Positions 6,482 to 60,968 of a stretch of DNA of 64,000 nucleotides are shown here, piece by piece. This DNA comes from a virus. The notes below the pieces were generated by a model. It saw only the letters and a list, made by a program, of their open reading frames with translations. It was not told where the DNA came from and made no database searches. The stretch covers positions 47 through 64,046 of IMG/VR virus record IMGVR_UViG_3300015202_000006; one strand, written 5' to 3'. The position numbers and the translations under genes are program-made. The stretch's first letter is position 1; every line of letters starts with the position of its first letter.

Positions 6482-6491
6482 TCCGTATAAA
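6482..6491 (+). promoter_or_regulatory. Phage promoter motif TCCGTATAAA
   Basis: Exact copy; 6 nt to ATG at 6498. Confidence 0.8.
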
Positions 6492-6497
6492 AAGGAG

Positions 6498-7475
6498 ATG
6501 ATTGACACACGCATAGGGAACCCTGAGTTCATGAAACCCTATTGGCAGGCCTCTGAGGAGACGTTCCCGGGGCTTAATGTCCCTGTCTCCAGGGGCATGC
6601 GCTACGACCGTTCCCCGGAAGAACGCCAGCTTAAGGAAGAGATCGTTCGGATTCATCAAAATATTAAGAACGTGGCCAATCCCGGATCGTATGAAATCGT
6701 CATTGGCTGTGGGGCCACGCAGCTACTCGCTGCCGCTCTCTACACGGCAAAGCGCTCCGGTATCGATGAGGTATACGCTCGCCCTCCTTATTATTTTAGA
6801 TTTCCGTTTATGGCAGACGCTGCCGGCCTAACCCTCACCGGAAGTGGTATCGGTATTCGAGCCCGTCCGCACGCCGAAATCATTACCGTCCCAAGTAATC
6901 CAGACAATGTCGTTTACGAACAGAGTGATCTCGCGTTCCCTATTTTTGATCTCTGCTACAATTGGCCCCAGTACGGGCAGGTCATTGCCCGCGATGACGA
7001 TCTGATGATTTATGGGATGTCTAAAGCCACAGGTCATTCGAGCTGTCGGATTGGTTGGGCTCTTGTAAAAGACAAGAGCGTCGCAGAACAGATGCGTTTC
7101 TACATTGAAATCGCTTCAGGCGGATCGTCCATTGAATCCTTGATTCACGCAAAAATGATTCTGAGTGATCAGTCGCACCTCTATGATGAAGGGTCCGAAA
7201 CGGACTCAGTCTTTGAATACGGGAAAGAAATCTTGAACGATCGCTGGGAACAAATCAAAGCGCTCGATGTTCCTTGTCTGGAGGTGCTGAACACATCCGG
7301 CATGTTCCTCTGGGCGACATACAAGGATGGAATGGCCAGTCTTCGTCAAGACACTCAGATCCATGGGACTGACGGTTCGCTTTGTGGAGGCAGCTCAAAA
7401 CACGTTCGCATTAGTATTGGCGGTTCGAATGAGAACTTTCGGGAAGTTATCAATTCCTTTAAAGGACTAGAATAA
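6498..7475 (+). CDS. PLP-dependent enzyme of the alliinase / tryptophan aminotransferase (TAA1/TAR) family
   Basis: GCGATQL, RPPYY, TVPSNPD, FDLCYNWPQY, GMSKATGHSSCRIGWALVKDK (PLP Lys), closely resembling plant TAA1/alliinase motifs as recalled. Confidence 0.8.
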   Translation: MIDTRIGNPEFMKPYWQASEETFPGLNVPVSRGMRYDRSPEERQLKEEIVRIHQNIKNVANPGSYEIVIGCGATQLLAAALYTAKRSGIDEVYARPPYYFRFPFMADAAGLTLTGSGIGIRARPHAEIITVPSNPDNVVYEQSDLAFPIFDLCYNWPQYGQVIARDDDLMIYGMSKATGHSSCRIGWALVKDKSVAEQMRFYIEIASGGSSIESLIHAKMILSDQSHLYDEGSETDSVFEYGKEILNDRWEQIKALDVPCLEVLNTSGMFLWATYKDGMASLRQDTQIHGTDGSLCGGSSKHVRISIGGSNENFREVINSFKGLE

Positions 7476-7732
7476 TGGCTCATCCAAGAATGCTCGGCGC
7501 TACCTTTGAAACACGGGATGGATTGATCAGCCGAGATTCCACGCTCGTCTCTTTTCCGCCGCCCCATGAGTATCTTAGACCAATGCGGATCGAAGGACGC
7601 CAAATCAGAGAACTCGGCCCAAACGTCATCGAGATTGCTCCGATTCGAAAATACCGACTCGAGAAGATCCTTTTTAAAAACGACGAGTTCGGAAACCGCG
7701 TTCCCGTACGCGCCTGGTACGTCGAAACGTGA
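7475..7732 (+). CDS. Hypothetical protein (85 aa)
   Basis: ORF track; TAATG-coupled. Confidence 0.6.
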   Translation: MAHPRMLGATFETRDGLISRDSTLVSFPPPHEYLRPMRIEGRQIRELGPNVIEIAPIRKYRLEKILFKNDEFGNRVPVRAWYVET

Positions 7733-7814
7733 GCGCCGTCATCCTTTCTGATCTGAGATTCGTTCATACCCCTAAGACCAGAGAGTTCACCATCTGGCAT
7801 AATGAGGTCGAAGA

Positions 7815-8465
7815 GTGAAAATAGTCATTGTTTCGGACACTCACGGTTTTGAAGGTATTGAAGTCCCTGATGGGGACTTGCTCATTCACGCCGGAGACTT
7901 CTCTGGACGTGGAACTGAAAAGGACCTGATCCGTTTCAATGCCTGGATGGGAAGACTCCCTCATTCCAACAAGTTGGTTATTCCAGGAAACCACGATCTA
8001 TTCGTGGAAAAGGACCCTGACCTAGCCAGAGTCATTGCGACCAACTTCAGGTTTCTGATCGACGAAGAAATATCAATCAACGGCATCCGTATCTTCGGTT
8101 CACCCTGGACCCCTCAATTCGGCCCTTGGGCGTACATGCGTGACCCCTGCCAAATGAAAGAGGTCTGGGAGCGTCTACCAAGCGGTCTCGATATATTAGT
8201 CACTCACGGACCTCCTCATGGCGTTCTGGATGAGGTTATTTCCTACGAGGAAAAAAGCGGGAAGACTGGGATTGGTCATGCCGGATGTGTTTCACTTTTT
8301 AATCGAGTGATGGAAATAAAACCCAAACACCATCTTTTCGGACACATCCACGAGGGGTATGGCGAGCTGGAAATGTACGGCACTAAGTTTATCAACGCCT
8401 CAATATGCACGAGATGGCACAAGCCTACGAATCCTCCGATCGTCCTCGAGATCGAATCCGTATAA
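7815..8465 (+). CDS. Calcineurin-like metallophosphoesterase (MPPED-like)
   Basis: SDTHG, HAGD, GNHD, THGPP, GHIHE motifs. Confidence 0.9.
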   Translation: MKIVIVSDTHGFEGIEVPDGDLLIHAGDFSGRGTEKDLIRFNAWMGRLPHSNKLVIPGNHDLFVEKDPDLARVIATNFRFLIDEEISINGIRIFGSPWTPQFGPWAYMRDPCQMKEVWERLPSGLDILVTHGPPHGVLDEVISYEEKSGKTGIGHAGCVSLFNRVMEIKPKHHLFGHIHEGYGELEMYGTKFINASICTRWHKPTNPPIVLEIESV

Positions 8466-8466
8466 A
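8457..8466 (+). promoter_or_regulatory. Phage promoter motif TCCGTATAAA
   Basis: Exact copy; contains the upstream stop codon; 6 nt to ATG at 8473. Confidence 0.85.
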
Positions 8467-8472
8467 ACAGGC

Positions 8473-8841
8473 ATGCCCATTCAAAAGGAAGTTTTACTCG
8501 TCGACGATCTTCGGGATCCGAGTGATGTCCGTAAGCATCAAGATGAGCTTACTAACGAATGGATCTGTTTCGAAGATGAAGAAGTAGAGATTGCTCGTAC
8601 TGGTGAAGAGGGGATTAATCTCCTTCAGACACGCCGCTGGGAAACTCTCCTCCTGGATAACGACATGGGTGCAGGGATTGAAGGCCATGAAGTCCTAAGT
8701 TTTCTTCAAGACAATCCCCAGCACCTTCCTTCAGTAATTATTTTAGTCACAGCGAATATCATAGCCGGCAATCGCATGTCTGATGACCTCCGGATTCTAA
8801 AAGCCAATGGTCTTATCCGTGACTTCGGATGGAGACGGTAA
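8473..8841 (+). CDS. Receiver-fold protein, cyclic-phosphate-processing receiver type
   Basis: LLVDDLRDP, ARTGEEG, LLLDNDMG, VTAN pattern; next to a phosphoesterase. Confidence 0.7.
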   Translation: MPIQKEVLLVDDLRDPSDVRKHQDELTNEWICFEDEEVEIARTGEEGINLLQTRRWETLLLDNDMGAGIEGHEVLSFLQDNPQHLPSVIILVTANIIAGNRMSDDLRILKANGLIRDFGWRR

Positions 8842-9680
8842 TGAACGTTTTAAAGGTGGACTACACCGATCCCGAGGCGGCTCTTAAGCTCGATCAGTCT
8901 CTTCGTGAGACGGGTTTCGCTGTTTTGGTGAACCACCGGATCGATCCGGGCTTGCTTGCTGCGGCCTATGCCGATTGGGCAGTCTTCTTCGCTAGCGAGA
9001 AAAAATATCGATACACGTTTGATCCGAAGGATCAGAGTGGGTTCTTTCCTTTCAAGACCGAGCACGCCAAAGACTCTTCTATCAAGGACCTAAAGGAGTT
9101 CTTCCACATGTTTCCCGATACCGATCTTCCGGTCGGAATGAGCAATGCCACTAAGAAGCTTGCTAAAGCGCTTATGGGTCTTGGTGAAGAGATTTTGATC
9201 GCACTCGATAACGTTCTCCCTAAAAAGATTTCAGATAAGCTCGACGAGCCTTTAGTGTCCATGATTCAGAGGAGCGAGGGCACGCTCTTCCGGATCCTCC
9301 ATTACCCACCATTGAACGGTTCCGAAGAAACCGGTGCTGTAAGAGCGTTTGCTCACGAAGACATCAATCTCATCACCCTATTGCCAGCAGCCACCGCATC
9401 AGGCCTCCAGGTTCGGGATATGAACGGTAACTGGGTGGATGTGCCCGTCGATCCCGGAAGCATCGTTATCAATGCTGGAGACATGCTGAAGGAGGCCACA
9501 GACGGCTATTACCCGTCCACTACCCACCGAGTGATGAATCCGGTGGGTGAGGAAGCGATTTTGTCTCGTTACTCGATGCCGATGTTCATCCATCCTCGTC
9601 CGGGCGTCGTTCTCTCTGAACGATACACTGCCGGACAGTATTTAACCGAGCGCCTCGCTGAGATCGGACTACTTAAATGA
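8841..9680 (+). CDS. 2OG-Fe(II) dioxygenase, isopenicillin-N-synthase/DIOX family
   Basis: GFAVLVNH, RILHYPP, HED(HxD)INLITLL, GLQV, NAGDML, HRV, RYS motifs. Confidence 0.9.
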   Translation: MNVLKVDYTDPEAALKLDQSLRETGFAVLVNHRIDPGLLAAAYADWAVFFASEKKYRYTFDPKDQSGFFPFKTEHAKDSSIKDLKEFFHMFPDTDLPVGMSNATKKLAKALMGLGEEILIALDNVLPKKISDKLDEPLVSMIQRSEGTLFRILHYPPLNGSEETGAVRAFAHEDINLITLLPAATASGLQVRDMNGNWVDVPVDPGSIVINAGDMLKEATDGYYPSTTHRVMNPVGEEAILSRYSMPMFIHPRPGVVLSERYTAGQYLTERLAEIGLLK

Positions 9681-10357
9681 GTTCTGGAGAAGATATGGAA
9701 AACCCAAAAGACCTCAGCGCACAGTACGTCGATTCGATGGGATCCGATTTAACGCCTGTGAACGCGGCGAGAATCTCCTTTAATAACTCCTCAGAAGAGC
9801 TGACCGAGAAAGACAAGAAGCTCATCAACTATCTGGCCAAGCACCAGCACATGTCTGTTTTTGAACATTGTTCTCTTACGGTGATTGTCCATTGTCCTCT
9901 CTACATCCGGTCTCAGTGGCATCGCCACCGCACGATGTCCTACAATGAGGTGTCTCGCCGCTACACCGCAGACGATGTCGAGTTCTATGTTCCGCCAGTT
10001 GATGACATCCGGTTACAGAGCAAATCCAATAAGCAGGGGAGTGAAGGCCCGATGGACCCGGCCCAGGCTGAACTCGCTCAGGCAGCAATGGTTGAGATCT
10101 CAATGAAGGCCAATGAAGTGTTCGAAAAGCTCATTGCTCTTGGTGTCGCACGCGAACAGGCCCGGGCCATCCTCCCTCAAAACGTCATGACGAAGTTCTA
10201 CGCCACCGCAAACCTTCGTAACTGGGCCGCGTTCCTTAAGCTTCGTCTGGACCCGCATGCGCAGAAGGAGATTCGGGTTCTTGCCGAGCAGGTGTCCGAG
10301 ATCATCAAAGAACGCTGGCCAGTGAGTTACAAGGCTCTTGTGGAAAGCGATGAATGA
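9677..10357 (+). CDS. thyX: Flavin-dependent thymidylate synthase
   Basis: HMSVFEH, QWHRHR, NEVSRRY, ARAILP, NLRNW, LRLDPHAQKEIR. Confidence 0.95.
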   Translation: MSSGEDMENPKDLSAQYVDSMGSDLTPVNAARISFNNSSEELTEKDKKLINYLAKHQHMSVFEHCSLTVIVHCPLYIRSQWHRHRTMSYNEVSRRYTADDVEFYVPPVDDIRLQSKSNKQGSEGPMDPAQAELAQAAMVEISMKANEVFEKLIALGVAREQARAILPQNVMTKFYATANLRNWAAFLKLRLDPHAQKEIRVLAEQVSEIIKERWPVSYKALVESDE

Positions 10358-10587
10358 TCGACTCTCTTAAGTTTCGGTGTCGTTACTGCGACAAGCTATT
10401 TACGAAATCGGCACACGAAATAAAAAGAGAAGGCTCGATCAGGTGTACATACTGCAACGACCCTTGCGACGAAACTACTGTCGTAGAAGAAAAATCTATT
10501 CGGACCGATGTGTTTGGATATCGATTCAGTCCCGATTTTCAAAAGCAGTCGAACGATCCTGATGCCTGGACCGAGTTCGTGGACTAG
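10354..10587 (+). CDS. Small zinc-ribbon protein
   Basis: Two CxxC pairs; ATGA overlap. Confidence 0.65.
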   Translation: MIDSLKFRCRYCDKLFTKSAHEIKREGSIRCTYCNDPCDETTVVEEKSIRTDVFGYRFSPDFQKQSNDPDAWTEFVD

Positions 10588-10838
10588 CTGCGTATTAAAC
10601 AGGAAGAAGTTACTTTATGAACTCAGAAATATTGATCCGACTTGGTTTCAAATCAGGTTTTATGTTTGCTCTTGGGGCGCTGAGCGCAATGCTCGCCATG
10701 CAGCTTCTTCAGTTCGGATTCGGGTACTTGAGCCTGCTGGTTTCTAGCCACTAAAGATTATCTCCATCCCTTCTTGTCCTAACCATGAATGATTTCAGCA
10801 TGTGTCATTTATTCTATTTAATAAAAACTAAACGGTAA

Positions 10839-10856
10839 TTCAGCATTAATGCTGAA
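10839..10856. promoter_or_regulatory. Perfect 18-bp palindrome TTCAGCATTAATGCTGAA (operator-like)
   Basis: Exact inverted repeat in an AT-rich intergenic region, 7 bp before a TTGCTC-N17-TAATAT sigma-70-like promoter. Confidence 0.6.
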
Positions 10857-10923
10857 AATGAGCTTGCTCAAATAAAGTAGTCAAGCTAATATCTTTTTAG
10901 GTGGTTAAACACCTGGAGAGAAC

Positions 10924-11364
10924 ATGAACCGAAATAATCTGTACTCGAAAATAGCTCTGGAAGATTTCTACCAGATCTATCTCGATGAGCCAGGTGCTCT
11001 CCTTGTCGACAGTCACTTTATGGGAGCGGCCCATCACTTGAATTGTTGGATTAATTCAAGGGATCTGCACCCTAGTCTTTGCGAGTTTCATTTGGTACGC
11101 TTTGGTGCTCACCTGAGGCATCTCTATGAGACGGTTTACGTTACTGGCGACTTCTTGCTAGCCGTGGACCCATCAGAGAGGAATCTGCATCAGAGGAAAA
11201 CCTGGAGCCCTAACCTTTTGAGTTATCCTCACGAGACAATGTTCAAGGATATGGTTTCAGACGAAAGAGTTCCGATGGGTAAAGAACACCCCTACGATCG
11301 TCTGCTACATAGTCTAGCCCCGCCCCAAACCCTAGCGAGTAGCTGTTTAGCACTCGCCTCATGA
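10924..11364 (+). CDS. Hypothetical protein (146 aa)
   Basis: ORF track; GGAG SD. Confidence 0.55.
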   Translation: MNRNNLYSKIALEDFYQIYLDEPGALLVDSHFMGAAHHLNCWINSRDLHPSLCEFHLVRFGAHLRHLYETVYVTGDFLLAVDPSERNLHQRKTWSPNLLSYPHETMFKDMVSDERVPMGKEHPYDRLLHSLAPPQTLASSCLALAS

Positions 11365-11389
11365 TGAGAGCATAAGAAGGAACCCCCTC

Positions 11390-11716
11390 ATGTCTAAGCA
11401 GAACGTAAAGTCGGGACTGACGCTTGATTCTAAAAACTTCGATATCAAGCTTCCTGGCGATGACTGGCAGAACATAGCCAAGTACTTAGGCGAGGCTCTT
11501 TACGTCGCCGCAAAGAAAATTCAGGTTCACTACAAGGGCGAGACTCCGGTGTCGGTCCAGCAAATTTATATGGAGCTAGTACAGAAGGCGACCGACCATG
11601 CCGAAGACCTGATAAACAATGAAGCGGAAGTGGAGCTGGGCCTGGCCGAAGAAGATTCGGATGAGGAAGATGATAGTGAGCAGCCACCGAAAGGGCACTC
11701 TGCCTGGAAGCCATAG
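11390..11716 (+). CDS. Acidic hypothetical protein (108 aa)
   Basis: ORF track; AAGGA SD; typical codon usage. Confidence 0.7.
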   Translation: MSKQNVKSGLTLDSKNFDIKLPGDDWQNIAKYLGEALYVAAKKIQVHYKGETPVSVQQIYMELVQKATDHAEDLINNEAEVELGLAEEDSDEEDDSEQPPKGHSAWKP

Positions 11717-11820
11717 GCTAAAAAGGTGGCTGAAGAGCGTTTGATGCTACTTGCAAGTTTAGATGCGATAAAAATGCATCGCCAAAGCCATTCAAATTGT
11801 CTGCGCTGATAGCTAAGAAG

Positions 11821-11907
11821 TGGTCCCCGCGAATCGACTCGAACGATCATGCCCTTGCGAGCGCCGCGCCCTGAACACGGTGTGTCTACCAATTCCACCA
11901 CGCGGGG
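11821..11907 (-). tRNA. tRNA-Leu(CAG), long variable arm, encoded CCA
   Basis: Acceptor CCCCGCG/CGCGGGG, D-loop GGAATTGGTAGAC, anticodon arm CCGTG-TTCAGGG-CGCGG, variable hairpin GCTC-GCAA-GGGC, T arm GATCG-TTCGAGT-CGATT, 3' ACCA. Confidence 0.95.
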
Positions 11908-11916
11908 ATTTACGGG

Positions 11917-13029: not shown

Positions 13030-13227
13030 GCCATAGCTCCTTCAAGGGCGGACGGCGACCGTAGACCCTCGCTATTACATCGGCGAGTTGCTTCAATCGC
13101 TTAAGGTCCTGAAAGGAGACTATGTGTGAATCAGGTGAAGTAAAATCTACCACTGAACTCATTTTTCCGTCTACCAAACTTGCATAACTAATTGAAACTA
13201 TTGGTAAAAGCACATAGGCATTTTCGC

Positions 13228-13258
13228 CCCTGAAACGAGTGTGTCTACCAATCGCGTT
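13228..13258 (-). repeat. Degenerate copy of the tRNA-Leu 5' half (att-like direct repeat)
   Basis: CCCTGAAACGAGTGTGTCTACCAAT (13228-13252) vs CCCTGAACACGGTGTGTCTACCAAT (11869-11893): 21/25 identical, including the 7-nt anticodon loop and a 14-nt perfect block. Confidence 0.75.
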
Positions 13259-13328
13259 ATTTTGTCAATGGTTTCAGTAAGAACGAAAGAAGGTTGACCC
13301 GTGCTTCCCGCGTGGTTCGGACAAGGGT

Positions 13329-13338
13329 TTTATACGGG
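13329..13338 (-). promoter_or_regulatory. Phage promoter motif variant CCCGTATAAA
   Basis: One mismatch; points toward the degenerate tRNA fragment about 70 nt downstream. Confidence 0.65.
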
Positions 13339-13418
13339 AGGCGATTCATGAGCCCGGCGCGGGAGGACTCTGGTTCGGGCGGGCGAGAGGCCGGGCGATT
13401 TATGCGGGCGGTGCCTTT

Positions 13419-13428
13419 TCCGTATAAA
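13419..13428 (+). promoter_or_regulatory. Phage promoter motif TCCGTATAAA
   Basis: Exact copy; 6 nt to an in-frame GTG at 13435. Confidence 0.8.
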
Positions 13429-13434
13429 ATCGAT

Positions 13435-14073
13435 GTGGCACAGAACTTATCTCAAGCACTCATTACGCGACTTCCATACGCGGCTTCACACGACTCAAAA
13501 GTCATTTTCGAGCAGTGTAAAAAGGTCGATCTCCGGGGACTAATTTGTCTCTCCATCCCGATCTTCGTGGAGGCCCCAAATAGTGGGGGCAAACTCATCA
13601 CGGAGCTTGAGGCGATGGGTCTCGTCTTGGTGGCCAAGATCGCCTGGTACCGCGATCGTCACATTGTCTGCTCAAGGTCCCGCCGGCTGACTAATACCTG
13701 GGAAGAGATCGCCATTTTCTCGCGGTCCAAAAACTACATTTTCGATCGCGCTTCGGTCACCAAGATCAAAGCCCACTACGCCAACAAGACCGATTCCTTC
13801 ACCGAAGAAGAGTTCCTCACTTGTGTTGGCGATCACTGGGGAGTGCCAAACGATCGTCGCGACCGGCGCTACCTTCCAGAGCAGATCGTCCTCAACTGCG
13901 CAAACCTGGCCCAGCTTCAGCCCGACGACACCGTTCTAGATCCGTACGGAAACCCAGGAGTGCAAGACGCCTGCGACCATTACGGGTGGACCTACAAAGA
14001 CGGGCTCCTCCCAAGCGAACTTCGAACCACAAGAAAGGCTCCTAAGAAAGAGCCTGGCCTCAAATCCGTATAA
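13435..14073 (+). CDS. Degenerate beta-class N4/N6 DNA-methyltransferase-like protein
   Basis: Layout IAWYR...WEEIAIFS...GDHW...P...VLDPY resembles beta-class MTases, but motif IV reads TRLPY and motif I reads DPYGNPG. Confidence 0.55.
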   Translation: MAQNLSQALITRLPYAASHDSKVIFEQCKKVDLRGLICLSIPIFVEAPNSGGKLITELEAMGLVLVAKIAWYRDRHIVCSRSRRLTNTWEEIAIFSRSKNYIFDRASVTKIKAHYANKTDSFTEEEFLTCVGDHWGVPNDRRDRRYLPEQIVLNCANLAQLQPDDTVLDPYGNPGVQDACDHYGWTYKDGLLPSELRTTRKAPKKEPGLKSV

Positions 14074-14074
14074 A
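14065..14074 (+). promoter_or_regulatory. Phage promoter motif TCCGTATAAA
   Basis: Exact copy; contains the upstream stop; 12 nt to the groEL ATG. Confidence 0.8.
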
Positions 14075-14086
14075 ATTAAGAGTCGT

Positions 14087-17370: not shown

Positions 17371-17407
17371 TGACTACTCCGGTTTATTTTCGACTGCGAG
17401 ACAACTG

Positions 17408-17760: not shown

Positions 17761-17770
17761 TCCGTATAAC
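17761..17770 (+). promoter_or_regulatory. Phage promoter motif variant TCCGTATAAC
   Basis: One mismatch; SD-led ATG at 17793. Confidence 0.7.
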
Positions 17771-19720: not shown

Positions 19721-20602
19721 ATGAGCAACAGCAGCGCTTTTAAGAGACCTCCAAAGAAGAGAAAGAAAGTTAAAAAGGCAAAATCTTTTGTCTTGTTGGA
19801 CTACGCTCAACTTGAGGCTGAGCATATGCAAACAGTTCACTTCTTCATGAAGAAGAAGTTCCCTCTCGGTCGCGGCCCGGGCCTCCCAACCCGCGAAGAC
19901 ATCAAACAGCAGATGATGATTCAGATCATCAAGGCCATGCATAAGTTCGATCCTGAACGCTATTTGACCACCTCTTCGTACAACGAAGAATTGATCAAGG
20001 ATCCAAAAACCAAGCAGATGCGCCCAAATAAATTCTATAATCCTGCCAAGGGTGCGGAGCAAATTGCCATGAAGCAAGTATGCCCCGAAGCTTCCCTGAA
20101 ACAGGGTCGTATTCAATATGGATTTGGAGCACTTACCAACTGGTGCCGCCGATTCCTCAGCGAGAATCATCCGGATAAGCTGGGGGGCATGGAAGTGAAC
20201 CTGACGGACTTTATGGCGAACACCGATCTCGGCCAGCTGGCGAACCCAGAAGATAGCTATATCGAAACGGAAAGCTCGGTTTCGATGCAGATGTCTTCTT
20301 CGGAAGACTCGCTCTCTTTCTACAGCGAAGAAGCCAGGGAGGAGCTTGAGTTCCTTCTTGCCGCTGCAGAGAAAGAAGACTCGATGGCGATTAAGCGCCT
20401 GTTTGCTGCCATGGATGAAGAAACCAAGGCCGCAGTTGGCGCAATGATCCATATCGTTTGTCGTCAGGCCGATCAGCGCAAGTATCTTGGCGCCAACGGA
20501 GAGGCCAAATTCGACAAGTACCAAAAACTTGTGGTCGAACAAAAAGAAGAAGAGACTCCCCAGTCCTCTTCCGGCTTCGAAGAGTCCGACGACGAAACGT
20601 AA
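19721..20602 (+). CDS. Divergent sigma-70-like factor (region 2 recognisable)
   Basis: HMQTVHFFMKKKF...REDIKQQMMIQIIKAMHKFDPERY aligns with sigma region 2.1-2.3 (EDLxQxGxIGLxKAxxKFDPxRG); LTNWCRRFL is a candidate region 2.4 after an insert. Confidence 0.65.
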   Translation: MSNSSAFKRPPKKRKKVKKAKSFVLLDYAQLEAEHMQTVHFFMKKKFPLGRGPGLPTREDIKQQMMIQIIKAMHKFDPERYLTTSSYNEELIKDPKTKQMRPNKFYNPAKGAEQIAMKQVCPEASLKQGRIQYGFGALTNWCRRFLSENHPDKLGGMEVNLTDFMANTDLGQLANPEDSYIETESSVSMQMSSSEDSLSFYSEEAREELEFLLAAAEKEDSMAIKRLFAAMDEETKAAVGAMIHIVCRQADQRKYLGANGEAKFDKYQKLVVEQKEEETPQSSSGFEESDDET

Positions 20603-20624: not shown

Positions 20625-20663
20625 GGGCCTCCAGTCTAAATCGGCTGGGGGCCCTTCTCGTTT
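20625..20663 (+). terminator. Stem-loop, probable intrinsic terminator
   Basis: 12-bp stem GGGCCTCCAGTC/GGCTGGGGGCCC followed by TTCTCGTTT. Confidence 0.55.
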
Positions 20664-20675: not shown

Positions 20676-20685
20676 TCCGTATAAA
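20676..20685 (+). promoter_or_regulatory. Phage promoter motif TCCGTATAAA
   Basis: Exact copy; 30-nt leader with AAGGAG SD. Confidence 0.8.
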
Positions 20686-24854: not shown

Positions 24855-24864
24855 TCCGTATAAA
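24855..24864 (+). promoter_or_regulatory. Phage promoter motif TCCGTATAAA
   Basis: Exact copy; followed by a structured leader of about 97 nt. Confidence 0.8.
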
Positions 24865-24961: not shown

Positions 24962-25447
24962 ATGGCTATTACGAAAAAGAAACTCATCATCAATCCAAGC
25001 TCAGAAGAACAGGCGGGCATCGTGATGCTTAATCCGGGACCTCTTCTAGAAGAGATCGTGACCAAGGTTTTGCAAAAAGGACCCAAGGATCGCTTCGACC
25101 CCTTTTATGTAAGTGCCGCCCAAGTTACGCGTTTCCTGTCCAATGTGGAGAACAAAACCATTGGAGCCCAGAAGTACGCCGGGGTCGAAATTAAGTCATA
25201 CGATGAGGCGCTAAAGTTCTTCTCCGAAACCGCCAGCGACGTCTATGGGCCTGGTTGGATGGCGAAAGTAATTAGTAACGAAATTCATCTCTCCTCCGGG
25301 CCTAGTAAGGTCTTTGGCGTGATGGTTCCCTCCTCTGAAAACATTGAGGTTCTTAAGAAAGAGATCTCGATCTTTGCCGACGTACAGATCGGCGAACAGG
25401 CCGCCTCTGATACGTCGAAAAAGAAGACGAAGAAGCAATCCGTATAA
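24962..25447 (+). CDS. Hypothetical protein (161 aa)
   Basis: ORF track; AAGGA SD. Confidence 0.75.
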   Translation: MAITKKKLIINPSSEEQAGIVMLNPGPLLEEIVTKVLQKGPKDRFDPFYVSAAQVTRFLSNVENKTIGAQKYAGVEIKSYDEALKFFSETASDVYGPGWMAKVISNEIHLSSGPSKVFGVMVPSSENIEVLKKEISIFADVQIGEQAASDTSKKKTKKQSV

Positions 25448-25448
25448 C
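25439..25448 (+). promoter_or_regulatory. Phage promoter motif variant TCCGTATAAC
   Basis: Contains the upstream stop; leads to the SSB gene. Confidence 0.75.
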
Positions 25449-28561: not shown

Positions 28562-28715
28562 TCCCCAATTCGTCGTAGAGATTGAAAAAGAGAATCCAAG
28601 TCGGCCCGGGAAATCAAACCGGGTCGTTTTTATGTTTGTAGATGAGGACGACGCAAAGAAGAAGCTGGCTGAAGCTCTGAAGAAAGGACTGAAGGCCAAG
28701 ATCCGTATAAAATAG
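28548..28715 (+). CDS. Small hypothetical protein (55 aa)
   Basis: Hand translation from a TTG with GGAG SD; fills the gap before the nuclease gene. Confidence 0.5.
   Translation: MIENDPQFVVEIEKENPSRPGKSNRVVFMFVDEDDAKKKLAEALKKGLKAKIRIK
28702..28711 (+). promoter_or_regulatory. Phage promoter motif TCCGTATAAA
   Basis: Exact copy; 6 nt to ATG at 28718. Confidence 0.85.
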
Positions 28716-39106: not shown

Positions 39107-39116
39107 CTTATACGGA
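39107..39116 (-). promoter_or_regulatory. Phage promoter motif variant TCCGTATAAG
   Basis: 6 nt to ATG at 39100; divergent from the copy at 39146. Confidence 0.75.
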
Positions 39117-39145: not shown

Positions 39146-39155
39146 TCCGTATAAA
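39146..39155 (+). promoter_or_regulatory. Phage promoter motif TCCGTATAAA
   Basis: Exact copy; 9 nt to ATG at 39165. Confidence 0.8.
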
Positions 39156-39969: not shown

Positions 39970-40428
39970 ATGGGAAGTCGTGACCACAGAATTGACAAGA
40001 TCAACGCTTACCGAAAACTCTTGAGTAGCCGGAAGCTTCCAAAGTTCGACGAAAATGCTGATAAAACGCTCGAATCCGAACTAAATGACGAATTCAATTC
40101 CTGGGTTGAGGACCAAATCTCAGACCTCTTGGGAGAGAAAGTAACTCAGGGCGAATACGGCGTATTCACTCAGTCCGAAGTGGAATTCATTAAAGCGTTC
40201 GCCGCCCGAGCTTTAGCGAAGGCAGCGCCTGCGCCCCAGGCGAACGCCCAGGCGGTCGAGCCCCAAGTCCGTATAAATCCAGATGTGAGGCAAAAGCCCA
40301 CTCAAGTAAAGCCTCAGGCCCCTCGTTCAAAATCGGACGATTCTGCCGTGAGAGCAAAGGACCGCTGGGTCCGGCAGCTTGATCAAATGGAAGACGACAA
40401 TAACGTCCCTGATTTTCTTAAGGAGTAG
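39970..40428 (+). CDS. Hypothetical protein (152 aa)
   Basis: ORF track; GGAG SD. Confidence 0.7.
   Translation: MGSRDHRIDKINAYRKLLSSRKLPKFDENADKTLESELNDEFNSWVEDQISDLLGEKVTQGEYGVFTQSEVEFIKAFAARALAKAAPAPQANAQAVEPQVRINPDVRQKPTQVKPQAPRSKSDDSAVRAKDRWVRQLDQMEDDNNVPDFLKE
40268..40277 (+). promoter_or_regulatory. Phage promoter motif TCCGTATAAA (inside a CDS)
   Basis: Exact copy 157 nt upstream of the gene at 40435. Confidence 0.55.
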
Positions 40429-44122: not shown

Positions 44123-44132
44123 TTTATACGGA
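44123..44132 (-). promoter_or_regulatory. Phage promoter motif TCCGTATAAA
   Basis: Exact copy; 6 nt to ATG at 44116. Confidence 0.8.
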
Positions 44133-44432: not shown

Positions 44433-44758
44433 AGACCGTTAAGGGATACAATATTGCGAAGGTCGCAGAGACGTTTAGCGCCGTAAAGTCCCAAGAAATT
44501 ATCAAAAGTATTAAGCAGTTAGAGGACAACCTCGATACCCTGCGCTCTTTCCGTATAAAAATCGTGAGTCTATCAGAGTTCAAGAAGGCCGATGATGGCC
44601 TGGCAGTTCTTAGTGAAGTACTCAGGATGCGCAATGATGGACAGCAGGTGCCCGCGAAAACTCAAGACACTTCCTCAGGAACCCTGCCAAGAAGGCAGGA
44701 AAGCCGTGGACGCTGCCCGAAACGGCGAGCACCAAGGTTGTCCTTGGTTTGTGGTTGA
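44429..44758 (+). CDS. Hypothetical protein
   Basis: ATGA-coupled; 3' part overlaps the next gene. Confidence 0.45.
   Translation: MKTVKGYNIAKVAETFSAVKSQEIIKSIKQLEDNLDTLRSFRIKIVSLSEFKKADDGLAVLSEVLRMRNDGQQVPAKTQDTSSGTLPRRQESRGRCPKRRAPRLSLVCG
44550..44559 (+). promoter_or_regulatory. Phage promoter motif TCCGTATAAA (inside a CDS)
   Basis: Exact copy about 75 nt before the gene at 44634, upstream of the prohead protease/capsid block. Confidence 0.6.
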
Positions 44759-49921: not shown

Positions 49922-49931
49922 TTTATACGGA
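49922..49931 (-). promoter_or_regulatory. Phage promoter motif TCCGTATAAA
   Basis: Exact copy; 6 nt to ATG at 49915. Confidence 0.85.
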
Positions 49932-49949: not shown

Positions 49950-49959
49950 TCCGTATAAA
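49950..49959 (+). promoter_or_regulatory. Phage promoter motif TCCGTATAAA
   Basis: Exact copy; 7 nt to ATG at 49967. Confidence 0.85.
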
Positions 49960-49966: not shown

Positions 49967-51343
49967 ATGACCAAAGAGATCCCTTACGGCCTCGATTTTC
50001 AGCGCGGAGTTTTCAAACTCATGGCCACAGACGAGGTGTTCTGTGCGAAGGCTTGCCACCATCTGAATGGTAAGTTTTTTACCGGAGAACTTAAGTGGTT
50101 CTTCAATGTGGCAAAAAGCCATTACGAGAACTTTAAGGAAGTGCCTTCTCAGGGAGTCTTTGAGACCGAAGCCCTGAAGCATGAGATCAAAAAGCAGCAA
50201 TACTACTTTGACGAGGTCCAAAAGATCTTCCACTCAAGCCCTTCAATTGAGAAGACTAAGCGGGAGCTGACAGGATTTATACGGGCCAACATCTTTGTCG
50301 ATGCCTATCAGAGAGCGTCCGATCTCTTTAATGCAGGCTCGAAAGACAATGCCTATGAGATCACCTCATTTGAGCTTGAACGACTGAACAAGATCGATTT
50401 CGAGCGAGAACGGGTCGTTCGGTTCGGTGATCACGAAAAGGTCCTTGGCATCCTCTCTTCTCAAAAGAGGGACGCCATCCCTACCGGGATCCGAGCTATC
50501 GATGATGCGATGAACGGAGGGCTGTATCCGGGCTCTTGGACGACGTTTATCGGCGGATCCAATTCTGGAAAGAGCCTTTTGACCTGCACGCTCGGCTACT
50601 TCGCGGTGATGTCTGGAAAGAAGGTATTCTGTACAATCCACGAAGACGAGGAGTTTCCAACCAAGTGTCGCTGGCTCTCTAGGTTCTCGGGCATTCCGTT
50701 TGCTCGTCTAATGACAGGCCTCGCTCTGCTTTCTCCTGAAGAACGAGAGATGCTCGCGCGCGCCGATGAGATCCTAAAGGAGAACGTCGTTCTTCGGTTC
50801 ATGTACACTCAAGAAGCGATCGTTGAGCGCGTGCTCGAAGCGGCTCGCATGCTTCACAAGGAATGGCCGTTTCATCTCTTCCTTTGCGACTACGGGCAAT
50901 GCCTCACCTCCTCACGCTTTAAGTCCATGGACAACCCACGGATGCTCCAGGAGTACGTCTATGGGGAGCTGAAACAGATTTGTCTCGAACTCAATATTGC
51001 AGGTGCTGGCGGCGCTCAGACTAACCGTCAAGGCCATGCGCTCGCAAAGTCGGGGGCCGACTACATTCGCTGTACTGACGTGGCCGAAGCGTTCGGTATC
51101 GTTCGTAAGTCCTCAAACGTAATCACCATGAACCGTTCCAACTCAGATGCTGGCAAAGACCGCATTGTCTATCTTTTAGACAAGGTCAGAAATGGGATCT
51201 GCCCTATCGCTGTCGAGTGTGTAACCGACTACAACCGATGCCGCACTCATACCGATGAAGTGGGCTCTCAGGCCATGGTTAACGTTGATGATGGGCCGAA
51301 CAAGAAGGCCTCCAGAACTGAGGATGCGGAGCAATCCGTATAA
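49967..51343 (+). CDS. Replicative DNA helicase (DnaB/gp41-like)
   Basis: IPTGIRAID, GGSNSGKS (Walker A), LCDYGQ, AQTNR, LDKVRNG. Confidence 0.9.
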   Translation: MTKEIPYGLDFQRGVFKLMATDEVFCAKACHHLNGKFFTGELKWFFNVAKSHYENFKEVPSQGVFETEALKHEIKKQQYYFDEVQKIFHSSPSIEKTKRELTGFIRANIFVDAYQRASDLFNAGSKDNAYEITSFELERLNKIDFERERVVRFGDHEKVLGILSSQKRDAIPTGIRAIDDAMNGGLYPGSWTTFIGGSNSGKSLLTCTLGYFAVMSGKKVFCTIHEDEEFPTKCRWLSRFSGIPFARLMTGLALLSPEEREMLARADEILKENVVLRFMYTQEAIVERVLEAARMLHKEWPFHLFLCDYGQCLTSSRFKSMDNPRMLQEYVYGELKQICLELNIAGAGGAQTNRQGHALAKSGADYIRCTDVAEAFGIVRKSSNVITMNRSNSDAGKDRIVYLLDKVRNGICPIAVECVTDYNRCRTHTDEVGSQAMVNVDDGPNKKASRTEDAEQSV

Positions 51344-51344
51344 A
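51335..51344 (+). promoter_or_regulatory. Phage promoter motif TCCGTATAAA
   Basis: Exact copy; contains the helicase stop; 6 nt to ATG at 51351. Confidence 0.85.
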
Positions 51345-51350
51345 ACAGTC

Positions 51351-52375: not shown

Positions 52376-52379
52376 TTCT

Positions 52380-53391: not shown

Positions 53392-53666
53392 CACTCAGAG
53401 TCCTCTTCGTCGGCATGCTCTTCGCTAGGCAAGAACCAACGTTTCTCGGTGTAATTCCAATGGCGGTTGTCTTGAATCGCCAAATTAAAGAACAGCCCAA
53501 ATAGACTGAAATTCGCGGAAAATCCTGCGTGGTCCTGAGAGTGGCTCCATCGAATATCAAACTCGAAGTACTCACCAATTTTTGTAAATCGGACGAGCTG
53601 TATCTCCAGGCTCTTATTCACCGTGATTGGCAGGCTGGTACCGTAATTAAAGGTTCGTTGTTCCAT
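53388..53666 (-). CDS. Hypothetical protein (92 aa)
   Basis: Starts 6 nt after a promoter motif. Confidence 0.65.
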   Translation of the reverse strand: MEQRTFNYGTSLPITVNKSLEIQLVRFTKIGEYFEFDIRWSHSQDHAGFSANFSLFGLFFNLAIQDNRHWNYTEKRWFLPSEEHADEEDSEC

Positions 53667-53672
53667 ATCGAT

Positions 53673-53682
53673 TTTATACGGA
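53673..53682 (-). promoter_or_regulatory. Phage promoter motif TCCGTATAAA
   Basis: Exact copy; 6 nt to ATG at 53666. Confidence 0.85.
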
Positions 53683-53699
53683 GATCTGGATGGTTCTAA

Positions 53700-53709
53700 T
53701 CCGTATAAA
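53700..53709 (+). promoter_or_regulatory. Phage promoter motif TCCGTATAAA
   Basis: Exact copy; 6 nt to ATG at 53716. Confidence 0.85.
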
Positions 53710-53715
53710 ACAAGC

Positions 53716-55797: not shown

Positions 55798-55804
55798 GGC
55801 GCTT

Positions 55805-55814
55805 TCCGTATAAA
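55805..55814 (+). promoter_or_regulatory. Phage promoter motif TCCGTATAAA
   Basis: Exact copy; 6 nt to GTG at 55821. Confidence 0.8.
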
Positions 55815-55820
55815 CCCTAG

Positions 55821-55994
55821 GTGAAGCTCAAACTCGTTTTCTTTACCTTTTTTGCGGTGTATTTCGGTTTGTATCTCATACCGACGCTCATTGCGGCCGT
55901 GGCAATTTCAGCCAGGCTGACCGCTCTGTCTACGGGTTCAATCGGACAATATGAGAATGATTCCTCAGTCCGATCCGGGCCTTCTGCTCATTGA
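55821..55994 (+). CDS. Small membrane protein (57 aa)
   Basis: Hand translation MKLKLVFFTFFAVYFGLYLIPTLIAAVAISARL...; below the ORF track cutoff. Confidence 0.5.
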   Translation: MKLKLVFFTFFAVYFGLYLIPTLIAAVAISARLTALSTGSIGQYENDSSVRSGPSAH

Positions 55995-57813
55995 TCAACT
56001 CGTGATGTTGGCCTCTAGTCTTAAAGAAGAAGATCTTGAGGATCCGGAGACGTTTGCTCTATGCTCTCAGCTTGTCCAAATTCTAGACCCAAAGCCCGAG
56101 CCAATGCCTCAGGATGTAGTCGATCAGTTAAGCCAAATTCAAAACACCGCCGATCGTTTCCGTCAGGCCGTCCAACTCTTTGGAGTGATGGACACTCCAG
56201 GCATGCAAAAACTCCTGGAGTCTATGAAGTCTGCAGGTCTTATGAAAGCCGAAACACTTTTAAAGATGCCATTTGTTAGCCAACATAATTCTGATGTCGC
56301 TCAACGGATTGGCCCGCTGGTTCCTAAAGGAAAGCTTATTGGGACCTACAAAGTAGGTAGCCACACAGTATTTCATCACCAAGAAGAAAGCGGCGAATCT
56401 AATCATTTTACTATTCACCCTAAAAACGACTCCGGTGCAAGACCGATAGCAGGGCTTTTTACAAACTCCTTTTACGACCATGGGGCAGACGAAGGCCTCC
56501 ATGGCCTTCAATACTCCGAACATATTGCAGTCGAACCTAGGCATCACGGAAAAGGGATGGGGGCCGCACTCGTAATTGCGGCCACAAAACACTTCGGAAC
56601 ACTGCTAAGTGGAAACACACTCTCTCCAGGCAGTGACGGCCTTTTTAGAGAAATTGGTAAAAAGCATAAGCAAATTCGCGTCGAAGTTGGAACTGGAGAC
56701 GATGCTCCTCATGTAGCCACTTGGACAAAACAAAAAAAGAACTCAAAATCTCAAGACGTTAATAAGTCCGAAGTCCTCATGAAGATGCCAATGATCCGGA
56801 ACAACAAGTTCCCGGATCATCAGGAGCGGTTGAAGGGCGCCAGCAACGGCATGCAGTACGAAGGATCCGAGACGTTCGGTCGTCACACCATCCATAAGTA
56901 TTCAAACCCGATCCTCGGACAACACGCTTACACGATTAATGAGGGCGGGCACGAATCAGGCGAGCACGTCTCTGCAGTGATTGTTCATCACAACAAAGAA
57001 TCCTTTGCTGGCGCACATCATTCCATCGAGTTTGCGGCCACTAAGACCAGTCATTCCGGAAGAGGCCATTCCACCGCCCTCCATGCCTTTGCAACAACAA
57101 AGCATCAGAAGGTATCCTCTGCCGAGATCCTGACCGATTCGGGTGACAAGGTTTACAAGAAACTTTCTCAGCTCCCTCATTTTGAGGTGAAGCGCCACGT
57201 TCACGGGGCCAATCGGCCCGCATCGAGCCCTTCTTCCGTTAAGGGAACTAGACATGTGGTCATCAGCAATAAGGTCGCTGAGCATTTTGATAAAGTTAAA
57301 CAAAACTGGGCCGGAAAATTCTTTAAAAAGTCTGAGACCGATGCCGACCATCTTGTCCATTATTCCGTTCATGCAAATGAGCTGAACACGATCGATCCTA
57401 GCTTTCATGGTACAGGCGCTGTCGGCCACGAAAGCCGTAGGACAAACCGGATACCCCGCTCCTATTTTTATGAGCACGGAACTCAGCCCGAAGATGCGGT
57501 TACAGCCCAGTCAAAGCGAGTTTACAAGGTTAAGCGTCCGGAGAAGGTATTAGATATCGCGAGCGAAGAAGCTCGTCCGGTCTATCATGCGGCCTTCGGT
57601 GAGGCTGACCGCACTAAAATTGATCGTCGTTCCATGGACGCCAGTCGTCTTGAATTCGAAATCAAGAAGCAGGGCTTTCACGGCTACAAGAACTCCGAAG
57701 GGCCTCTTCCTAATGTGGTCGCTCTATTTCATTCGACCCCAGTCGAATCGAGCGAGCCGGTAGATCATGAGCATTTCGCAAAAATTCGGGATCTTGCCAG
57801 GAAGGCAAAGTAG
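55951..57813 (+). CDS. Multidomain (polyvalent-like) protein: two GNAT-like modules plus an ART-like module
   Basis: IAVEPRHHGKGMGAAL and AATKTSHSGRGHSTAL (acetyl-CoA motif A-like); LVHYS...GTG...SYFY...VYKV...GFHGY; modules preceded by KAE/KSE. Confidence 0.6.
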   Translation: MRMIPQSDPGLLLIDQLVMLASSLKEEDLEDPETFALCSQLVQILDPKPEPMPQDVVDQLSQIQNTADRFRQAVQLFGVMDTPGMQKLLESMKSAGLMKAETLLKMPFVSQHNSDVAQRIGPLVPKGKLIGTYKVGSHTVFHHQEESGESNHFTIHPKNDSGARPIAGLFTNSFYDHGADEGLHGLQYSEHIAVEPRHHGKGMGAALVIAATKHFGTLLSGNTLSPGSDGLFREIGKKHKQIRVEVGTGDDAPHVATWTKQKKNSKSQDVNKSEVLMKMPMIRNNKFPDHQERLKGASNGMQYEGSETFGRHTIHKYSNPILGQHAYTINEGGHESGEHVSAVIVHHNKESFAGAHHSIEFAATKTSHSGRGHSTALHAFATTKHQKVSSAEILTDSGDKVYKKLSQLPHFEVKRHVHGANRPASSPSSVKGTRHVVISNKVAEHFDKVKQNWAGKFFKKSETDADHLVHYSVHANELNTIDPSFHGTGAVGHESRRTNRIPRSYFYEHGTQPEDAVTAQSKRVYKVKRPEKVLDIASEEARPVYHAAFGEADRTKIDRRSMDASRLEFEIKKQGFHGYKNSEGPLPNVVALFHSTPVESSEPVDHEHFAKIRDLARKAK

Positions 57814-59723: not shown

Positions 59724-60192
59724 TCCGAGCGCTAATGCCTCACAGCACTTTACTTTCAAAGAGTTGCTTTGGCTGCCCTCATGGGGCCGTCTTGCAAACG
59801 AGTCTGATGGTCTCACGGACGAGACTCTCGACCGTCTTGTATTCATGGCCCAGAAACTCGATGTCGTTCGCGAGTTTTTCGGTAAGCCAATCAACATCCA
59901 TGTCTGGTACCGCCCACACGCTTACAACGCGCTTATAGGTGGCAAAGACAATAGCGCCCACATGGCCACTCAAAACGCCCATGGTGTGCCTCTGACGGCC
60001 GTGCAGATGGAAGCGGCAGTGGATTTTGATGTAGAGGGAATGTCTTGTGACGACGCTCGCCAGATGATCCTAGACGCCGGAAAACTGCCCGAGTGGGGTC
60101 TTCGTATGGAGAACAACGGGCCTGGCTCCCCATGGATCCATTTGGACTGCCGCGCGCCCGTCATTCAAGATCATTGGTATTTTAACCCCTAA
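59710..60192 (+). CDS. Peptidase M15 family zinc peptidase (candidate endolysin)
   Basis: HFTFKEL, LDVVREFFGKPI...WYR...YNALIGG...SAHM...AVDF...WIHLD. Confidence 0.85.
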   Translation: MRTIDPSANASQHFTFKELLWLPSWGRLANESDGLTDETLDRLVFMAQKLDVVREFFGKPINIHVWYRPHAYNALIGGKDNSAHMATQNAHGVPLTAVQMEAAVDFDVEGMSCDDARQMILDAGKLPEWGLRMENNGPGSPWIHLDCRAPVIQDHWYFNP

Positions 60193-60263
60193 CGTCATCA
60201 CTGGTACGTCAGTACGTTTATAGACTCGCTGAACGCATACCAGTAGGATATACAACCGCTCGC

Positions 60264-60512
60264 ATGGCCCAACCTAAACCAAAGATAAGCTTAGTACTCG
60301 ACGGCAACCACTCCCACAATCCCGAGAGGGCATCGACCATCCAATATGGCGATGGTGGTCCTGATGGCGACCTGGTCGGCAAAGTTCAAATCCAGCTTGC
60401 TCAAAACGGGTACGTCCTCACTCTCTTTGGACCGACGAATACAGAGCCGCAAGTGTTCATCTTTCCAAATAAGTCTGACATGTTAGCTGTCTTGGCAAAG
60501 TGCTTAAAATAG
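60264..60512 (+). CDS. Hypothetical protein (82 aa)
   Basis: ORF track. Confidence 0.55.
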   Translation: MAQPKPKISLVLDGNHSHNPERASTIQYGDGGPDGDLVGKVQIQLAQNGYVLTLFGPTNTEPQVFIFPNKSDMLAVLAKCLK

Positions 60513-60514
60513 GT

Positions 60515-60524
60515 TCCGTATAAA
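60515..60524 (+). promoter_or_regulatory. Phage promoter motif TCCGTATAAA
   Basis: Exact copy; 6 nt to GTG at 60531. Confidence 0.85.
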
Positions 60525-60530
60525 CCCTAT

Positions 60531-60968
60531 GTGGCACCAACATATTTTCTCGACGAACACGGCAAATCGGTAGAGGTTCCGGATTCTCCAGGATCTCCCA
60601 TCCTGACAATTACGGATAAAATCATCTCCGACATGGACCATGGTCCAATGTCCGCCGCTGCCAAGACCGCGCTTGTCGCATCGGTTCTCGCAAAGACCTT
60701 CCCGAAACACTTCAATGGCAAGTGGTACAGTCTGGAAAGAATCCGGGAACGAGCCCAGTCTCACTACGTCCATGGCCCGGCCTCACGCCAAGATAGAGGT
60801 CTGCTCGAAAGGGCTTTTATCCATGCCCTGGCCGACGACCTTCATGCCAGCGGTGAAACGTTTGAGCCGTTCTCTCTTTCATTCCCAATGATCGACAATT
60901 ACGTCCGTCCAAGATGGCACGTCAGTGTTTCTGATGGGGCCGACTCTCAACCTGCGAAAACGCCCTGA
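60531..60968 (+). CDS. Hypothetical protein (145 aa)
   Basis: ORF track; start matches the motif spacing. Confidence 0.6.
   Translation: MAPTYFLDEHGKSVEVPDSPGSPILTITDKIISDMDHGPMSAAAKTALVASVLAKTFPKHFNGKWYSLERIRERAQSHYVHGPASRQDRGLLERAFIHALADDLHASGETFEPFSLSFPMIDNYVRPRWHVSVSDGADSQPAKTP

Follow-up and report, generated by a model that had tools for sequence, protein, structure and literature searches.

Across a 64,000-nucleotide stretch of viral DNA (the window), which covers positions 47 to 64,046 and therefore nearly all of the 64,064-bp IMG/VR record IMGVR_UViG_3300015202_000006, the 10-nt motif TCCGTATAAA recurs ahead of genes, often at the same short distance from the start codon. This raises the question of whether the motif is a promoter and, if so, what reads it and where its transcripts begin. 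An earlier note on this DNA had described a genome-wide promoter whose fixed 6-nt spacer would give leaderless mRNAs. Our analysis indicates that TCCGTATAAA(A) is probably a promoter private to this uncultivated glacier phage, lacking a −35 element and read by the host RNA polymerase together with a phage-encoded sigma-like protein.

Motif copies and their distance to start codons

Allowing up to one mismatch, TCCGTATAAA matches the window 28 times, 20 of them exactly, which bears out the earlier count of at least 26 copies; dinucleotide-preserving shuffles average 2.78 matches and never exceed 7. In 13 of the 28, exactly 6 nt separate TATAAA from an ATG or GTG, and each of these start codons opens an open reading frame (ORF) of 57–1199 amino acids; they are the same 13 copies to which the fixed spacer had been ascribed. 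Given a background ATG/GTG frequency of 0.026, the probability of finding at least 13 of 28 copies at 6 nt is 5e-14. Short spacers of other lengths precede dnaB (7 nt), one small gene (9 nt), and groEL (12 nt), so the layout typical of leaderless transcription, with the −10 element 5–8 nt before the start, is found in 13 copies at 6 nt and one at 7 nt. The remaining copies lie 20–157 nt before a start codon, mostly with an intervening Shine-Dalgarno sequence (SD). A gene on the same strand is faced by 26 of the 28 copies. The claim that the motif always points toward a gene consequently holds apart from 11565(−) and 50276(−), two one-mismatch copies lying antisense inside genes, a number close to the chance expectation.

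The aligned copies share a conserved block of 10–11 nt, TCCGTATAAAa, with no conserved −35 element or any other conserved upstream position. The last base of the hexamer is A in 25 copies, C in two, G in one, and T in none; an A comes next in 20 of the 28. The window holds 36 TATAAA hexamers, 23 of them within CCGTATAAA, and only three occurrences of TATAAT on both strands. Among the 13 TATAAA hexamers without the full CCG, just two variant copies (3432− and 6347−) face a gene start: TTCGTATAAA, a one-mismatch copy with TTCG before the ribonucleotide reductase (RNR) gene, and TTGTATAAA, a copy with TTG before the gene at 6324 that resembles a conventional extended −10 element. Because TATAAA without TCCG rarely marks genes and the hexamer departs from the consensus of primary sigma factors, the signal is more than a −10 box.

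Two observations concern host-type elements. Matches to sigma-70-type promoters are not enriched in 3300–21300 (11 compared with 16.3 expected), and this shortfall, together with the scarcity of TATAAT, may reflect avoidance of host-type −10 elements. Separately, a host-type −10-like TATAGT stands 5 nt before ATG 43040 without the TCCG motif (43011–43042), and the leaderless layout may thus extend to host-type promoters in this clade.

In the mechanism that we propose, TATAAA would act as a −10-type element and TCCG as a 4-nt upstream extension, with no −35 box, and the host multisubunit RNA polymerase would be redirected to the motif by the domain-2-like module of a phage sigma-like protein, for which the product of 19721–20602 is the candidate. 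The first transcribed base at a bacterial promoter usually lies 7 nt beyond the end of the −10 hexamer; with a 6-nt spacer, this base is the A or G that opens the start codon. Starting at the seventh base after TATAAA, the transcripts of 13 units would begin with the start codon itself, and that of dnaB one base ahead of its ATG. Such mRNAs would have neither a 5′ leader nor an SD and would be translated by the leaderless route, with ribosomes binding the 5′-terminal start codon. A normally spaced SD is excluded at the 13 starts because the preceding 16 nt consist of motif plus spacer. The remaining copies would serve units with leaders of 9–157 nt (about 3–150 nt as transcribed), most of them with an SD, and genes internal to operons would rely on SDs or translational coupling.

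Several features support a start at or beside the start codon. Multisubunit polymerases favor a pyrimidine at −1 and a purine at +1. A pyrimidine precedes the start codon in 11 of the 13 six-nt copies, and among the 15 copies that have no start codon at this position, a pyrimidine–purine step occupies the sixth and seventh bases in 10 (background 0.23, P = 3e-4). The spatial arrangement agrees with this placement. Copies at 8457, 14065, 25439, and 51335 overlap the stop codon of the preceding gene; three back-to-back divergent pairs (39107−/39146+, 49922−/49950+, and 53673−/53700+) occupy gaps of 50–60 bp in which no other promoter-like elements were found; and the hairpin at 20625–20654, the strongest terminator-like hairpin in 3300–21300, lies between the stop codon of 19721–20602 and the copy at 20676. 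The layout in sister phages, described below, provides further support.

Homology also confirms that the motif-defined start codons are the true N termini. Profile matches begin at residue 2 for Alliinase_C (6498), at residue 1 for Metallophos (28718), and at residue 1 for the SbcC family (53716). The N terminus of SbcC aligns from residue 1 with its orthologs in two sister phages, L010 and L014 (MRILSVVARNFR / MKLISVSARNFR / MRILSVSATNFR), and the N termini of DnaE orthologs do likewise (MSKSPTSIQLCP / MSQAPTNTQLSP). As had been predicted, the spacing corrects start codons misplaced by the longest-ORF rule, at least six in number (6498, 8473, 13435, 49915, 51351, and 53666). The proposed division of genes into leaderless and leadered classes fared less evenly. 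The starts of dnaE, sbcC, sbcD, and dut are indeed at 6 nt, and ssb has a 42-nt leader with an SD, but groEL, which had been expected to keep a leader or SD, does not fit: with a 12-nt spacer, its transcript would carry a leader of ~6 nt and no SD, and groEL would be nearly leaderless too. The further suggestion in the note, that leaderless mRNAs could let the phage control translation separately from its host, is speculative.

Sister phages, the candidate reader, and alternative explanations

The major head protein has many metagenome relatives at 50–64% identity, and the nearer of these phages carry their own versions of the motif. In a 61.7-kb record (L008/L012 = G001), TC[CG]GTATAA[C/A/T] is present in 19 copies, often 5–8 nt before start codons; this relative also has, at L008:1679, one canonical TTGACT-17-TAGTCT promoter located 6 nt ahead of an ATG. 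L010 and the 37.5-kb record G002 (L014) use ATCGGTACAGCA, with 17–18 copies in 37.5 kb and spacers mostly of 6–8 nt, and place it at the same genes as in the window, namely sbcC, dut, dnaB, and the divergent pair before clpP. The 3.1-kb contig L032, which encodes the closest homolog of the 19721 gene, has two copies of AACGTATAAG: one precedes a small gene with a leader and SD, and the other is separated from the dnaE ATG by exactly 6 nt, which matches the arrangement of window copies 20676 and 21222. The versions align as TC-S-GTA-Y-A-R-M-A.

Position and short spacing are thus conserved among the sisters, and the motif is altered in concert within each genome. This pattern points to a phage-encoded reader, because the versions differ between sisters at the same genes; a shared host sigma is hard to reconcile with it, since TACAGC is a very poor −10 element. 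The layout belongs to the nearer subclade, because in the fetched loci of the more distant relatives L013 and L015–L019 (major head proteins 50–55% identical), only SD-like words were found before the starts. We tentatively entertain, with more doubt than confidence, a wider reading in which the glacier-phage clade runs an orthogonal program comprising a fast-evolving domain-2-only sigma, a −10 specificity that has shifted between sister phages (TATAAA, TATAAC/G, and TACAGC), leaderless mRNAs for most first genes of operons, and possibly predatory Bdellovibrionota hosts.

Two further observations were made on the relatives. A frequent GGAACAGCGG word in L020, a 132-kb relative, was rejected as a promoter motif, as it belongs to coding tandem repeats; at L020:18519–18849, a long coding 15-nt tandem repeat with GGAACAGCGGC-containing units mimicked a motif in k-mer counts. 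The DnaB of the 61.7-kb relative (L008:16704–19289) contains an intein with a LAGLIDADG domain according to Pfam, and the DnaB of the window has no intein.

The gene at 19721–20602, located between the primase and dnaE genes, encodes a fast-evolving protein with an acidic C-terminal tail for which no significant Pfam or PHROGs family was found. Its best Pfam match is Sigma70_r2 over a region-2.2-like stretch (E = 0.045). An exhaustive HMMER search of 1.8 billion representatives returned one clear homolog besides the candidate itself, and a word-based search returned none; a search for further sigma homologs yielded two already known distant loci from viral contigs and none from metagenome contigs. 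In three related records, weak homologs occupy the same position between primase and dnaE.

An AlphaFold (AF2) model built from five sequences reached a mean predicted local distance difference test score (pLDDT) of 62, with residues ~20–155 at 65–89. In an exhaustive structural search with VIA-align, residues 20–156 of this model aligned chiefly to sigma domain 2 (Z 6.8–7.9), which accounted for about half of the top 50 matches and 10 of the top 11. The matches included pro-sigma-K (Z 7.9), sigma-28 (Z 7.8), sigma-B (Z 7.6), the N-terminal domain of SigE (Z 7.5), residues 375–446 of E. coli sigma-70 (Z 7.4), many extracytoplasmic function (ECF) sigma factors, and, over 80 residues, T4 gp55 (7d7d_F, Z 6.8). 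A Foldseek list was likewise composed mostly of sigma factors, at non-significant E-values. When candidate residues 20–160 were docked by prediction on residues 220–350 of Bdellovibrio RpoC, the score was 0.69, compared with 0.20 for the best control; 58 of 80 solved complexes attained the docking mark, as did 2 of 110 mismatched pairs. The predicted contacts join candidate residues 51–74 to β′ residues 267–298, which would correspond to the canonical interface between region 2.2 and the clamp helices. No region-4-like module was recognized in the candidate, which fits the lack of a −35 element in the promoters. We favor, with moderate confidence, the assignment of this protein as a sigma-like, domain-2-only factor and, with somewhat less, its role as the reader of the motif.

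An ordinary host-type promoter, either −10-only or extended −10 and used by the host primary sigma alone, would also give leaderless mRNAs. TATAAA is similar to the −10 consensus, a −10 motif adjoining an ORF suffices as a promoter in Deinococcus-Thermus and results in leaderless mRNA (PMC12340547), and the middle and late transcripts of the Thermus phage phiYS40 are reported to be mostly leaderless (PMC3594737). However, TATAAT is nearly absent from the window, 3300–21300 shows no enrichment of sigma-70-type matches, a TATAAA that lacks TCCG is no marker of genes, and the presence of TACAGC at the same sites in sister phages is hard to explain by a shared host sigma. In addition, primary sigma factors almost universally require a T at −7, and not one of the 28 copies has T at the last hexamer position. 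These data make the host-type explanation unlikely. A promoter for a phage-encoded RNA polymerase, with its gene outside the contig and a different start offset leaving leaders of ~5–6 nt, appears less likely still. Near-invariant, phage-private motifs that differ between sisters, such as this one of 10–11 bp, are typical of phage polymerase promoters, and the record is perhaps only part of a genome of ~160 kb. Yet Pfam or PHROGs searches with ~60 window proteins revealed no polymerase gene, T7-type promoters have roughly double the length of this motif, and the pyrimidine–purine step 6/7 nt past a TATAAA-type hexamer is the geometry of a multisubunit polymerase. The window moreover encodes a sigma-like protein with predicted binding to the β′ clamp helices. 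We consider it very improbable that the motif is an RNA-level element (a translational operator, a ribosome recruitment signal, or an RNA-processing site) with promoters located elsewhere. The fixed 6-nt distance would also suit a protein or ribosome contact overlapping the initiation region, of which the T4 RegA operators are an example, but at least 10 copies are separated from the start codon by 20–157 nt that include an SD, the gaps of the divergent pairs leave no space for other upstream promoters, the copy at 20676 follows a terminator, and the motif has no complementarity to the anti-SD.

Several points weigh against the promoter read by host polymerase and a phage sigma-like protein that we prefer. 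Searches for RNA runs containing the phage listed none. GTG serves as the start codon in three of the 13 cases; some bacteria translate leaderless GUG mRNAs, but E. coli does so poorly. The contig is perhaps incomplete, and another polymerase or factor could be encoded elsewhere. Regarding the candidate, the Sigma70_r2 match does not reach significance (14 bits compared with a cutoff of 24), sequence (phmmer) and profile searches of the PDB gave no match, and hhalign found no match to T4 gp55 (probability 0.3%). Z scores below 8 are common for helical models and not decisive, particularly for a model with a pLDDT of 62, and the docking score may reflect only a resemblance to solved sigma–core complexes.

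Gene content, neighboring features, and host leads

The positions of all copies, the candidate gene, and the terminator-like hairpin are listed in Table 1.

Table 1. Motif copies and associated elements in the window
Feature	Position	Strand	Layout and downstream gene
TTCGTATAAA	3427..3436	−	50-nt leader with AGAGG; class II RNR, ATG 3376
Exact copy	4469..4478	−	no convincing ORF downstream; faces 3437–4468
Exact copy	5787..5796	−	20-nt leader with GAGAGGG; 65-aa ORF, ATG 5766
Exact copy	6482..6491	+	6 nt to ATG 6498; alliinase-family pyridoxal phosphate (PLP) enzyme
Exact copy	8457..8466	+	overlaps stop of upstream gene; 6 nt to ATG 8473; cREC_REC receiver protein
One-mismatch copy TCCATATAAA	11565..11574	−	antisense within ORF 11390–11716; probably a chance match
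CCCGTATAAA	13329..13338	−	faces integrase / tRNA-Leu island; integrase start 13029
Exact copy	13419..13428	+	6 nt to GTG 13435; DNA methylase, 212 aa
Exact copy	14065..14074	+	overlaps methylase stop; 12 nt, no SD, to ATG 14087; GroEL
TCCGTATAAC	17761..17770	+	22-nt leader with SD; ATG 17793, 103 aa
Candidate sigma-like gene	19721..20602	+	domain 2 only, acidic tail; between primase and dnaE genes
Terminator-like hairpin	20625..20654	+	strong; 12 pairs, 9 GC; between sigma-like gene and next copy
Exact copy	20676..20685	+	30-nt leader with AAGGAG; ATG 20716, 101 aa
ACCGTATAAA	21222..21231	+	6 nt to ATG 21238; DnaE
Exact copy	24855..24864	+	97-nt leader; ATG 24962, 161 aa
TCCGTATAAC	25439..25448	+	overlaps stop of preceding gene; 42-nt leader with SD; ATG 25491, gp32-like single-stranded DNA-binding protein (SSB)
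Exact copy	28702..28711	+	6 nt to ATG 28718; SbcD-like phosphoesterase
TCCGTATAAG	39107..39116	−	6 nt to ATG 39100, 110 aa; divergent with 39146(+)
Exact copy	39146..39155	+	9 nt to ATG 39165, 68 aa, then ClpP-like protease gene; divergent with 39107(−)
Exact copy	40268..40277	+	inside gene 39970–40428, 157 nt before ATG 40435; possible internal promoter
Exact copy	44123..44132	−	6 nt to ATG 44116, 60 aa
Exact copy	44550..44559	+	32 nt to ATG 44592, 113 aa
Exact copy	49922..49931	−	6 nt to ATG 49915; dUTPase, 312 aa; divergent with 49950(+)
Exact copy	49950..49959	+	7 nt to ATG 49967; DnaB helicase, implied 1-nt leader; divergent with 49922(−)
CCCGTATAAA	50276..50285	−	antisense within dnaB; chance match or antisense promoter
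Exact copy	51335..51344	+	overlaps dnaB stop; 6 nt to ATG 51351, 88 aa
Exact copy	53673..53682	−	6 nt to ATG 53666, 92 aa; divergent with 53700(+)
Exact copy	53700..53709	+	6 nt to ATG 53716; SbcC; divergent with 53673(−)
Exact copy	55805..55814	+	6 nt to GTG 55821; 57-aa hydrophobic ORF
Exact copy	60515..60524	+	6 nt to GTG 60531, 145 aa

The window has a GC content of ~50%. Besides class II RNR, GroEL, DnaB, DnaE, SbcC, and SbcD, the recognized genes encode the terminase, portal, and major head proteins, a Toprim primase, the gp32-like SSB, a RecA/UvsX-like recombinase, a DNA methylase, the alliinase-family PLP enzyme, the cREC receiver protein, a ClpP-like protease, and a dUTPase with an N-terminal extension. 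The record ends cut through genes, the RNR gene (−) at the left and a 103-amino acid open frame at the right. Among the relatives, a 157-kb record is rated 96% complete and the 61.7-kb record 37%. Given the truncated end genes and the high completeness of relatives of ~157 kb, the 64-kb record possibly represents only part of a genome of ~160 kb. The promoter had been called genome-wide; its copies are indeed spread across the window, which itself may be only part of the genome.

Metagenomes of eight glacier and ice studies contain near-identical DNA. For positions 38501–56500, the window was compared with contigs from four glacier DNA runs. One glacier-run contig lacks 918 bp (42848 to 43767, including ORF 43040–43369), and two runs share a 6-bp insertion after 52829; apart from these, the contigs are >99% identical to the window, with ~47 variant sites. 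None of the variant sites falls in a motif, and with only ~0.3 expected there, the comparison is powerless.

Three regions of the window have features of their own. Downstream of the exact copy at 4469(−), the stretch 3437–4468 (~1 kb) is gene-poor and contains no convincing ORF and no Rfam match; it could hold a non-coding transcript or very small genes. In 11821–13338, ARAGORN predicts a tRNA-Leu(CAG) 9 nt from the end of the 370-amino acid ORF 11917–13029, a putative integrase, and Rfam at its gathering threshold reported no tRNA in this interval. In the 312-amino acid product of 48977–49915, the dUTPase domain is confined to residues 187–311; the ~180-residue N-terminal extension, which contains CxxC motifs, starts from the motif-defined ATG. 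The dUTPases found at the same place in L010 and L014 are plain and ~145 amino acids long.

The leads on the host come from the relatives. The contig of L010 (L036:11400–20297) continues into bacterial-looking genes for a CsoR-like repressor and a NicO transporter; the walk along this contig did not reach the replication module. The NicO protein is 67–77% identical to proteins from metagenome-assembled genomes of Pseudobdellovibrionaceae, Bdellovibrio, and other Bdellovibrionota, several of them from glaciers. In addition, a relative of the head protein is present in one of 301 Bdellovibrionota genomes (E = 4e-125). These findings could reflect a prophage junction, a gene capture, or mis-binning, and Bdellovibrionota are a weak lead as hosts of the phage clade. 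A pattern-based prophage scan of species genomes for a host found nothing, and a literature search on Bdellovibrio and leaderless mRNA yielded nothing useful.

Significance and comparison with known systems

Phage promoters that give leaderless mRNAs are an already known strategy, found here in a new lineage. The novel elements are a TATAAA hexamer that is extended by TCCG and lacks T at −7, the concerted switch to TACAGC in sister phages, and a very divergent sigma-like candidate. The motif marks the starts of transcription units and can therefore serve as an annotation rule for the phage and its relatives. If the sigma-like protein reads the motif, the TATAAA and TACAGC sisters would constitute a natural experiment on how a minimal sigma changes its −10 specificity. 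Sister phages could then supply compact orthogonal promoter–sigma pairs and natural pairs with which to study the evolution of −10 recognition. The phage also joins a growing number of lineages whose private promoters stand directly on start codons, which suggests that leaderless initiation is widespread among phages and no special trait of Thermus phages.

The cascades of SPO1 (gp28 and gp33/34) resemble our proposal in that phage sigma factors redirect the host core enzyme to a motif unlike that of the host. The SPO1 factors recognize two-part −35/−10 promoters, whereas the candidate described here apparently has no region-4 module and the promoters have no −35 element.

The T4 late promoters (TATAAATA, used with gp55, gp33, and the gp45 clamp) are the nearest mechanistic analog of the proposed system. 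Both systems have an A-rich −10-type element with no −35 element and no T at the last hexamer position, and in both the reader would be a small phage sigma having only a domain-2-like module, gp55 in T4 and the candidate here. The phage also shares gp32, recombinase, and SbcCD genes of T4-like type. Unlike in T4, the TCCG extension is needed, the core is not identical to TATAAATA, the base after TATAAA is usually A rather than T, and the candidate has no sequence-level similarity to gp55. No gp33 or sliding-clamp homolog was recognized among the window proteins searched, the contig being possibly incomplete. T4 late mRNAs carry leaders with SDs, whereas about half of the units here would have neither. 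The motif also precedes replication genes as well as structural genes and is thus not late-specific.

For promoters adjoining start codons, cellular and temperate-phage examples are available. In Deinococcus-Thermus, in Actinobacteria, and in lambda PRM-cI, a −10 hexamer ~6 nt before the start results in a 5′-terminal AUG or GUG, as would be the case here. Those promoters have TANNNT and are read by the primary sigma; in contrast, the element in this phage is a phage-private motif of 10 nt without T at −7. A −10 element adjoining an ORF allows its start codon to be predicted, and leaderless mRNA is common in Deinococcus-Thermus (PMC12340547).

The host of the Thermus phage phiYS40 belongs to a phylum in which leaderless mRNAs are common, whereas for the present phage the host lead is the weak one to Bdellovibrionota. 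In phiYS40, the host polymerase reportedly acts at host-like extended −10 promoters. The motif described here does not follow the host-type consensus and shows co-variation among sister phages. Most middle and late transcripts of phiYS40 are leaderless, and translation was proposed to be biased toward them, with IF2 and IF3 levels shifting to their advantage (PMC3594737). In both phages the promoter stands directly before the start codon, making phiYS40 the nearest analog for the leaderless output proposed here.

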